Below are positions 5,392-6,640 of a stretch of 64,000 nucleotides of DNA, piece after piece (the stretch's first letter is position 1; the number at the start of each line of letters is the position of its first letter). The notes below the pieces were generated by a model that was not told the DNA's origin, made no database searches, and saw nothing but the letters and a program-made list of their open reading frames with translations. The translations under genes were made by a program, and so were the position numbers. This DNA is from Escherichia coli (GTDB lineage: Bacteria > Pseudomonadota > Gammaproteobacteria > Enterobacterales > Enterobacteriaceae), in the NCBI RefSeq assembly GCF_003334405.1, contig NZ_QOWM01000006.1; one strand, given 5' to 3'.

Positions 5392-5664
5392 AACTTCTAC
5401 CTTTCTACCCTGTCGTTAACGAAGCAGGCGATGCCTGCTTTGAGGAAATTCTCACGCAGTATTGCCCGATTTTTGTTTAGTGTCTACTCATCTGACGGCA
5501 TTTGCGTCAGCAGTTTGCGTACCGCGCCGAAGCGTGCCATGTATCGCCTGTAACGAATTGATATTTCTCTGAACGCTGCTCGGTAAACAATAAAGAGGTG
5601 GCTGACGATAGCGCGCCTTGACTGGATACTGCCTTCACGCAAAGCCACACGGAAGACAGGGAAG

Positions 5665-6567
5665 ATGGATGCACCGAGTACCACACCGCATGACGCGGTA
5701 TTTAAACAATTTTTAATGCATGCGGAGACGGCTCGCGACTTTCTGGAGATACATTTGCCAGTGGAATTACGCGAACTTTGTGACCTCAACACGCTTCATT
5801 TAGAGTCGGGGAGTTTCATTGAAGAGAGCCTGAAAGGACACAGCACGGACGTGCTCTATTCCGTGCAAATGCAGGGCAATCCCGGTTATCTGCATGTTGT
5901 GATTGAACACCAAAGCAAGCCGGATAAGAAAATGGCCTTTCGCATGATGCGTTATTCTATAGCCGCCATGCACCGGCATCTGGAGGCTGACCACGATAAG
6001 CTGCCGCTGGTGGTGCCGATACTGTTTTATCAGGGCGAGGCCACACCTTATCCGCTATCAATGTGCTGGTTTGATATGTTTTACTCGCCGGAGCTGGCGC
6101 GACGCGTCTATAACAGTCCTTTCCCGCTGGTGGATATCACCATCACACCGGATGACGAAATCATGCAACATCGGCGGATTGCGATTCTCGAACTACTGCA
6201 AAAACATATTCGCCAGCGCGACTTAATGTTATTGCTTGAGCAACTGGTCACGCTGATCGACGAAGGGTACACTAGCGGAAGTCAGTTAGTTGCCATGCAA
6301 AACTATATGCTGCAACGCGGTCATACTGAACAAGCGGATTTGTTTTACGGTGTGTTGAGAGACAGGGAAACGGGAGGCGAGTCTATGATGACGCTGGCGC
6401 AGTGGTTTGAAGAGAAAGGGATTGAGAAGGGGATTCAGCAGGGAAGACAGGAAGTAAGTCAGGAATTCGCCCAGCGTCTTCTGAGTAAAGGAATGTCTCG
6501 GGAAGACGTTGCAGAGATGGCAAATTTACCTCTTGCTGAGATTGATAAGGTAATTAACCTTATTTAA
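5665..6567 (+). CDS. rpnC: recombination-promoting nuclease RpnC (PD-(D/E)XK, transposase_31-like)
   Basis: 300-aa ORF (MDAPSTTPHDAVFKQF...); YhgA-like family signature; formerly yadD. Confidence 0.9.
   Translation: MDAPSTTPHDAVFKQFLMHAETARDFLEIHLPVELRELCDLNTLHLESGSFIEESLKGHSTDVLYSVQMQGNPGYLHVVIEHQSKPDKKMAFRMMRYSIAAMHRHLEADHDKLPLVVPILFYQGEATPYPLSMCWFDMFYSPELARRVYNSPFPLVDITITPDDEIMQHRRIAILELLQKHIRQRDLMLLLEQLVTLIDEGYTSGSQLVAMQNYMLQRGHTEQADLFYGVLRDRETGGESMMTLAQWFEEKGIEKGIQQGRQEVSQEFAQRLLSKGMSREDVAEMANLPLAEIDKVINLI
6385..6567 (+). CDS. candidate nested in-frame small ORF within rpnC (60 aa, C-terminal tail)
   Basis: SD-like GGGAGG at 6372-6377, 7 nt upstream of in-frame ATGATG (6385-6390); same frame and stop as rpnC. 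Confidence 0.35.
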   Translation: MMTLAQWFEEKGIEKGIQQGRQEVSQEFAQRLLSKGMSREDVAEMANLPLAEIDKVINLI

Positions 6568-6606
6568 GTTACCTGTGTTATGACAGATGACGTGGGGTAA
6601 ATTAAT

Positions 6607-6635
6607 AACTGGCGCCATCAGCCGTAGCGCCAGTT
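6607..6635. terminator. hairpin between convergent rpnC and panC
   Basis: AACTGGCGC (6607-6615) / GCGCCAGTT (6627-6635), 9-bp stem; no strong U-tract on either strand. Confidence 0.35.
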
Positions 6636-6640
6636 AAGTA

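Follow-up and report, generated by a model that had tools for sequence, protein, structure and literature searches.

The pantothenate genes panD and panC-panB of Escherichia coli are separated by a nuclease gene, rpnC, that lies on the opposite strand, and the locus raises the question of how this gene came to be there. The window analysed here, a single stretch of 64 kb, is K-12-like chromosome: the locus DNA was 99.9% identical to K-12-lineage genomes, and at least 80% of positions 4900–6800 was present in 5422 of 5426 complete E. coli genomes (megablast). The RefSeq annotation of the stretch gives yadE, panD, rpnC and panC, with the product name 'recombination-promoting nuclease RpnC' for rpnC, and the identities of panD, panC and panB were backed by NCBIfam equivalog models. 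A preliminary description had placed panD (5011–5391) and panC-panB (6641–8298) on the minus strand, to either side of rpnC on the plus strand; the open reading frame (ORF) list and the NCBIfam and Pfam models agree with this order, and the extents given for the panD-panC gap (5392–6640, 1249 bp) and for the region upstream of rpnC (5392–5664, 273 bp) are right. No Rfam family was found in the region, whether positions 4500–9000 were scanned in E-value mode or the whole window in gathering mode. The features of the locus are collected in Table 1.

The gene, its position, the idea of an insertion and the toxin–antitoxin mechanism are all already published. RpnC (YadD) of E. coli K-12 is the same gene at the same panD-panC position (Kingston et al. 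2017, J Bacteriol, PMC5350276), and that paper and its Text S1 already treat rpnC as an insertion; the junction at base level is absent from that paper. The new elements here are a map of the locus at base level and a modest argument on the number of events.

Table 1. Features of the panD-panC region, with positions in the 64-kb window and the basis of each assignment
Feature	Position	Strand	Basis or remark
yadE	3778-5007	+	ORF list
panD, aspartate 1-decarboxylase, 126 aa	5011-5391	-	ORF list; TIGR00223 equivalog, 228 bits against a cutoff of 106
Surviving ancestral panC-panD intergenic DNA	5392-5488	-	Aligns base-for-base with the ~95-bp empty-site spacer (Citrobacter, Klebsiella, Superficieibacter)
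Hairpin in the presumed panD leader, AAGCAGGC-ATC-GCCTGCTT	5422-5440	-	Conserved pairing and covariation
panD promoter-like motif: -35 TAGACA (5486-5481), 17-nt spacer, -10 AATACT (5463-5458)	5458-5486	-	Consensus scan, 9/12
Displaced former panC end, AGTAGACA	5481-5488	-	Within 5392-5488; former TAG stop at 5484-5486
Inserted rpnC cassette, ~1155 bp	about 5489-6643		Absent in 72/80 species loci; edges good to 1-2 nt
Candidate rpnC promoter: CTGACG (5602-5607), 17-nt spacer, GATACT (5625-5630)	5602-5630	+	8/12 to consensus, below scan threshold
rpnC (yadD), full-length nuclease RpnC-L, 300 aa	5665-6567	+	ORF list, TIGR01784, PF04754
Internal Shine-Dalgarno GGGAGG for the small protein	6372-6377	+	7 nt upstream of ATG 6385
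rpnC-S, in-frame internal ORF, 60 aa, M241-I300, intragenic antitoxin	6385-6567	+	Start predicted from sequence
12-nt tandem repeat, 2.7 copies of GAGAAGGGGATT, encoding EKGI/KGIE four-residue repeats	6412-6443	+	Tandem Repeats Finder
Relic 3' region, rpnC stop to hairpin	6568-6605	+	Rpn ORF reaches the hairpin in non-Escherichia relatives
Hairpin between the convergent rpnC and panC ends	6606-6636	-	Terminator-like scan, folding, repeat arms
panC, pantoate-beta-alanine ligase, 283 aa, GTG start	6641-7492	-	TIGR00018, 439 bits
panB, 3-methyl-2-oxobutanoate hydroxymethyltransferase	7504-8298	-	TIGR00222, 441 bits

To determine which relatives carry an rpn gene at this position, one genome per GTDB species was scanned with PanC, giving 80 Enterobacteriaceae loci, and rpn was sought beside panC by tblastn. 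No rpn gene was present at 72 of the 80 species loci, where the panC-panD spacing was 31–277 bp (median 97); these are referred to as empty sites. The eight occupied sites were from Escherichia (four, one of them on a truncated contig), Pseudocitrobacter (three) and the MAG UBA5654. Starting from protein homologues of 57–66% identity, we also found the site occupied in an unclassified 'Klebsiella sp.' and in several lineages of Salmonella. Table S2 of PMC5350276 gives S. enterica subsp. enterica and C. freundii as empty and S. bongori and other subspecies as occupied, and the empty state of S. enterica subsp. enterica used below is taken from that table. The preliminary description had read the arrangement as an ancient insertion, against which the presence of rpnC in all relatives at an unchanged panD-panC spacing would have spoken. 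This was not the pattern found, and the close, rpn-free panD-panC arrangement at 72 of the 80 loci supports insertion. The adjective is likewise supported: the insert occurs in E. coli, E. albertii, E. whittamii and one more species of Escherichia, and its G+C content resembles that of the DNA around it.

Kluyvera has an unexplained filler of ~170 nt at the panC-panD position. A profile of rpn-upstream DNA matched it with E-values of 0.37 to 8.9, no better than shuffled sequences, and the support for a decayed rpn insert there is confined to the junction ATATAGACAC and a shortened panC.

The panC ends of empty and occupied sites were compared to place the edges of the insert. In Citrobacter, Klebsiella, Superficieibacter and others, the empty site runs from panC…GCC CAG TAG directly into ACAGGGGTTAAAAATCGGGCAATACTGCC…, then a hairpin, then …AAGGTAGAnGTT-ATG of panD. 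The sequence at the panC end is GCC CAG TAGACAGGGG, in its longer form …GCC CAG TAGACAGGGGTTAAAAATCGGGCAATACT…, and panC has 284 codons, with its TAG stop inside a conserved TAGACA-N17-AATACT. At occupied sites panC is one codon shorter and has a new stop, and AGTAGACA is shifted to the panD side. The E. coli protein accordingly has 283 aa and ends …VELA, its TAA stop (6641–6643) is supplied by the insert, and non-homologous DNA follows directly. The left junction thus lies after panC codon 283 and the right junction before AGTAGACA, the former CAG-TAG. Both junctions, together with homologous non-coding ends, are common to Escherichia, Pseudocitrobacter, UBA5654, Salmonella and 'Klebsiella sp.'. 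A repeat search and the comparison of the junctions with empty sites revealed neither terminal inverted repeats nor a target-site duplication at the ends of 5489–6643.

The differing panC ends and the displaced AGTAGACA are therefore the footprint of an insertion and not of deletions elsewhere. We consider it very probable that the panC-panD spacer represents an old insertion of a non-autonomous rpn cassette that makes both a toxin and an antitoxin. The insert occupies the only gap that spares both PanC, which is given a new stop, and the promoter-like motif of panD. Base composition, which had been proposed as a check on 5392–6640, gave no signal in either G+C content or codon usage: the G+C content of the insert was 0.492 against 0.510 for the window, its GC3 was 0.545 against a background of 0.559 +/- 0.066, and codon bias was merely low (3rd percentile). 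Composition can therefore neither date the insert nor identify its source.

The number of insertions was addressed by Kingston et al. (2017), who, after comparing 32 panCD segments, preferred two separate introductions but also listed single-insertion alternatives (PMC5350276). The shared junction and the homologous non-coding ends lean instead towards one event, which among insertion scenarios we judge to be somewhat better than an even bet. For the fuller proposal we put the chances at about even: all occupied sites (Escherichia, S. bongori, the non-enterica subspecies, Pseudocitrobacter and relatives) would descend from one insertion into the one-codon gap that separates the end of panC from the -35 hexamer of the panD promoter, and homologous recombination within the conserved pan genes would then have exchanged occupied and empty alleles between genera. 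Such allele replacement is needed by a single insertion, as pristine empty sites (Citrobacter, S. enterica subsp. enterica) occur among the occupied lineages. PanB, PanC and PanD of Pseudocitrobacter were slightly closer to those of E. coli than Citrobacter's were, whereas YadE, YadI and PcnB were not, which may be a weak hint of replacement by recombination.

The best-surviving alternative is that related rpn genes were inserted two or more times, independently, at the one panC-panD site by a site-specific, homing-endonuclease-like process. Repeated gain easily explains why occupancy is patchy and why Citrobacter and S. enterica subsp. enterica have pristine empty sites, and site-specific insertion would also yield identical junctions; it would not so readily account for non-coding ends of the insert that are homologous up to both junctions in all lineages. 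The protein data can be read both ways. Escherichia RpnC was 61–66% identical to the other pan-site versions, compared with ~90% for PanC and 96–98% for PanD, and the non-Escherichia pan-site Rpn proteins formed a cluster of their own in 64 of 100 bootstraps, as expected of separate introductions. However, the pan-site proteins as a whole grouped against other Rpn proteins in 82 of 100 neighbour-joining (NJ) bootstraps, and a higher rate of amino-acid change (dN about 0.19 versus 0.03–0.10), with dS saturated throughout, accounts for the divergence of RpnC. Intergeneric dS was about 1–2 in rpn and the flanking genes alike; being saturated, it does not allow ages to be compared, and the test for a recent Escherichia–Pseudocitrobacter transfer therefore failed. 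What is known of the family also speaks against repeated insertion: cutting by RpnA is little sequence-specific and no new rpn insertions were evident in laboratory or wild E. coli (PMC5350276), and rpn genes are regarded as not autonomously mobile by Zhong et al. (PMC10400941). Independent insertions at this site are thus possible but, in our assessment, unlikely.

Far less credible is the reverse history, in which the pan cluster originally contained rpnC and most genera have lost it by deletion. Erosion of the insert does happen, as seen in the shortened segment of S. arizonae (Table S2 of PMC5350276) and in a full-length Salmonella locus (L103) with no called gene, to which the Kluyvera filler might be added. 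Nevertheless, more than 20 genera share the identical intact empty site with its 284-codon panC and embedded TAG stop, and simple deletions of the insert would not repeatedly recreate the lost panC codon and stop; the displaced copy of the panC-end sequence that is present in occupied sites argues against loss as well. Finally, although the Pfam and NCBIfam names (the old labels 'Transposase_31' and 'ISNCY family transposase') and the interruption of an operon suggest an insertion-sequence transposase, this identity can be dismissed almost entirely, given ends that lack inverted repeats and a target-site duplication, no second rpnC copy in the 64-kb window, a site that is unchanged in 5422 of 5426 E. 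coli genomes, with a median of one place in each, the lack of evidence for new rpn insertions mentioned above, and rpnC genes that have themselves been hit by IS2 and IS1 in some strains.

On the panD side of the insert, the motif T[AG]GAC[AGT]-N17-AATA[CT]T was found in 57 of the 80 loci, and its E. coli version is a putative sigma-70-like promoter of panD. Between the motif and panD, the hairpin of the presumed leader was paired in 98.1% of cells among 24 sequences, with three of its seven pairs changed on both sides. None of 500 shuffles matched its pairing or its covariation score, and slid controls were 24–60% paired. This hairpin is present in empty and occupied sites and is therefore ancestral; its conservation would be consistent with a role in the panD leader.

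At the other end of the insert, the preliminary description had noted a hairpin in the gap where rpnC and panC converge; it was recovered with perfect 10-nt arms at 6606–6615 and 6627–6636. On the panC strand it folded at -20.8 kcal/mol (z = -4.67), and none of 200 shuffles folded as well. The scan called it terminator-like on the minus (panC) strand only, where a 12-pair stem is followed by TTAATTTACC, and we infer from these properties that it is probably the terminator of panBC. The tail on the rpnC strand, AAGTATTACG, has no T-run, in keeping with ExcludonFinder, which lists rpnC and panC as a pair of convergent transcripts that overlap (PMC12288877). The hairpin was missing from empty sites and was found in every occupied site, with compensatory changes in the stem; stems were compared by individual folds, as MAFFT misaligned the most divergent hairpin (L008).

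Related rpn genes at a different host locus, yjjX-trpR (Superficieibacter electus, Citrobacter freundii), encode proteins 58–60% identical to RpnC and sit in cassettes like that of rpnC, consisting of ~150 nt of upstream DNA, the rpn gene and a hairpin, and abutting a convergent host gene at its 3' end. An identical CTGGCGC/GCGCCAG hairpin spans the stop codon of these genes and abuts the trpR stop. Its occurrence there, in all occupied sites and in no empty site indicates that the hairpin arrived with rpnC. The yjjX-trpR ORF ends …WR and stop inside the hairpin, whereas Escherichia rpnC stops 40 nt earlier. At the pan site, too, the Rpn ORF outside Escherichia ends …NWR and stop in the hairpin, TGG-CGC-TAA forming one arm, and the rpn and panC stops are 26 nt apart; in E. 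coli, AACTGGCGC survives as a hairpin arm, 3' of the earlier rpnC stop.

Upstream of rpnC, the hexamers CTGACG and GATACT were at the same position in 12 of the 12 occupied sites examined and the sequence of the spacer was variable, a pattern suggesting that CTGACG-N17-GATACT may be the rpnC promoter.

The nuclease assignment of RpnC was based on family models and conserved residues. RpnC scored 298 bits against the Rpn family model TIGR01784 (cutoff 52), and its residues 7–207 matched positions 1–201 of the 203 in PF04754 (Transposase_31/YhgA-like; E 3e-87). Across 14 RpnC homologues (54–94% identity), D10, D62, E81, Q83, R93 and D163 were invariant and lined up with D11, D63, E82, Q84, R94 and D165 of RpnA, a one-residue offset relative to the RpnA model. 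Mutation of these RpnA counterparts abolishes or alters activity (PMC5350276), and the active site of RpnC has the variant PD-(D/E)XK pattern (D...D...E-x-Q plus R) that was mutated in RpnA. The N-terminal domain had a dN/dS of ~0.1 and is therefore under purifying selection. An AlphaFold2 model from 14 sequences was of low confidence (mean pLDDT 53.9), with an order of secondary-structure elements that fits an alpha-beta-beta-beta-alpha-beta core, and a sequence search of the PDB with RpnC gave no match. Over-expression of RpnC induces SOS, cuts viability by 59% and causes a 2.9-fold increase in RecA-independent recombination, RpnC being the weakest active paralogue in the toxicity and recombination assays; the endonuclease biochemistry was done on RpnA, which cuts DNA with little sequence specificity (PMC5350276).

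The 3' part of rpnC corresponds to the 'gene-within-gene' toxin–antitoxin arrangement RpnL/RpnS (Zhong et al. 2023, PNAS, PMC10400941), with the internal Shine-Dalgarno sequence and ATG, the 60-aa C-terminal protein, the variable KGIE/EKGI repeats and rpnCSs all alike here. The internal Shine-Dalgarno sequence and ATG were kept in four other pan-site versions, including those of Salmonella and 'Klebsiella sp.'. Both RpnC-L and RpnC-S are made; SPA tagging revealed the latter, and it blocks RpnC-L only if the two have the same number of KGIE repeats; the assay for RpnC in that study was SOS induction and its block by RpnC-S only (PMC10400941). Among six E. coli strains, the number of EKGI repeats ranged from two (here) to seven (strain Seattle 1946), or the repeats were of RQEV type, and in four of the six another small gene, rpnCSs, preceded the hairpin. 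Diversity of rpnC among strains was concentrated in the 3' part: from nucleotide 721 to the end, identity was 90.4% with a mean of 41 gapped columns, compared with 95.6% and no gaps for nucleotides 1–720.

The suggestion that the inserted gene is selfish or defence-related is in line with a toxic PD-(D/E)XK-type nuclease that carries an intragenic antitoxin (PMC5350276, PMC10400941), and the rpnC locus may act as a phage defence of the toxin–antitoxin type. Phage protection has been reported for the plasmid-borne paralogue RpnP2LS only, against T-even phages, and none for RpnC (PMC10400941). None of the models in PADLOC-DB 2.0, which predates the Rpn paper, identifies RpnC as a defence system; RmrA and a 'putative invertase' gave weak matches in the C-terminal part (E about 1e-3 to 1e-4). 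The locus resembles homing endonuclease genes in that a nuclease gene lies at one precise site in several lineages while the empty alleles of relatives are intact. It differs from them in that rpnC has no intron or intein context and the family member that was tested is non-specific in vitro.

Taken as a mechanism, these features suggest an ancestral arrangement in which the -35 hexamer TAGACA overlapped the panC stop codon, and a cassette that would have landed between panC codon 283 and this -35 hexamer of the panD promoter-like motif. The cassette would have contributed a new panC stop, a promoter-like motif of its own, rpnC and a G+C-rich hairpin that now appears to end the panBC unit, and panD would have been left with its ancestral promoter-like motif and leader hairpin. 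RpnC-L (300 aa), a member of the PD-(D/E)XK-type YhgA/Rpn family, is predicted to cut DNA as a Mg-dependent endonuclease and is toxic if over-produced. RpnC-S (60 aa), with a predicted start at the internal ATG at 6385 and its own Shine-Dalgarno sequence, binds and blocks RpnC-L, and the number of EKGI/KGIE repeats sets the specificity of the block.

The base-level map shows how a foreign cassette can sit harmlessly inside an essential biosynthetic cluster: it swaps the last codon and stop of panC, spares the promoter-like motif of panD and brings its own putative terminator. The shared junction also provides a concrete test between one insertion with allele exchange and repeated site-specific insertion. 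If it is true that one insertion was followed by an exchange of alleles, the published model of two homing-like insertions would have to give way, and the locus would be a clean natural example of the spread of a non-mobile defence cassette.

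The presumed leader of panD carries a hairpin conserved between genera, with compensatory base changes and with either TTTGTTAT or TTCGTTAA 3' of it, and this was found alike at occupied and empty sites, that is, with and without an rpn gene in the panC-panD gap. The hairpin had no match in Rfam, and no described element was found to fit it; for panD it could attenuate or weakly terminate transcription, or else stabilise the leader.

Features of the window and of related loci (L-numbers denote loci outside the window)
Feature	Locus	Position	Strand	Context
Conserved hairpin	window	5422-5440	-	~30 nt 5' of panD start
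9-nt tandem repeat ACACGGAAG, 2.1 copies	window	5647-5665		immediately 5' of rpnC start
yadC-yadN fimbrial operon	window	8412-15580		adjoins panB
Commonest Salmonella pan-site Rpn protein (P0112)	L092	4001-4891		Salmonella
Rpn gene	L096	4001-4924		Superficieibacter electus, between yjjX and trpR
Rpn gene	L097	4001-4921		Citrobacter freundii, between yjjX and trpR

The panC-panD gaps of Kluyvera were 254-277 bp (L013, L014, L026 and L029). In these loci panC is shortened, ending in …VEL*, and a G+C-rich hairpin adjoins its stop, followed by ~170 nt of unrelated filler, then ATATAGACAC, then the ancestral region. This order is that of an insertion placed precisely at the junction used by rpnC, but one that carries no rpn gene. 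Its likeness to the DNA upstream of rpn genes was not significant (E 0.37).

Within Escherichia, an additional ~130-220 bp separated the hairpin of the rpnC cassette from the panC stop in E. coli O157:H7 PA20 (L083) and E. albertii (L004); we take this segment (…AAGTGACTGGGGTGAGCG…CTTGAAGTATGACGAGTATA…), by resemblance, to be a candidate ERIC/IRU repeat. The tandem repeat at 5647-5665 overlaps the rpnC start codon and ribosome-binding region, has a low score and may be due to chance.

The commonest Rpn protein of Salmonella at the panC-panD site was found in 292 blocks of the collection. Of the residues that hardly vary in the family, 16 (…LELLQKHIRQRDLM…) are missing from it, and the allele may be altered or in decay. 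In a further Salmonella locus (L103) the spacer is full-length, yet no gene was called inside it. A 4.3-kb contig labelled as an uncultured Oscillospiraceae MAG (Firmicutes; L001) encodes a PanC with 99% identity to that of E. coli, together with rpnC and a second, small stretch that resembles rpnC; the contig almost certainly reached the MAG bin as a contaminant from E. coli.

Elsewhere in the window, the G+C content of the yadC-yadN operon was ~0.37-0.44 (yadC GC3 0.35), far below the 0.53-0.55 of the pan genes. The operon has the look of an island of its own, foreign in composition, since it is absent from many genera, in which panB adjoins folK and pcnB. Rfam matches at gathering score were also obtained at 39541-39586, 48457-48543 and 49382-49491 (HtrA 5' UTR thermometer, t44 RNA and CssrA sRNA, respectively); these are expected for this region of the E. 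coli chromosome and are unrelated to the rpnC insertion.

The Rpn proteins encoded between yjjX and trpR share 58-60% identity with RpnC. Their genes are convergent with trpR, with a gap of just 15-17 nt to its stop, and the same CTGGCGC/GCGCCAG hairpin that belongs to the rpnC cassette here spans their own stop. This arrangement suggests that rpn cassettes follow a recurring design and tend to settle at the 3' ends of convergent genes.
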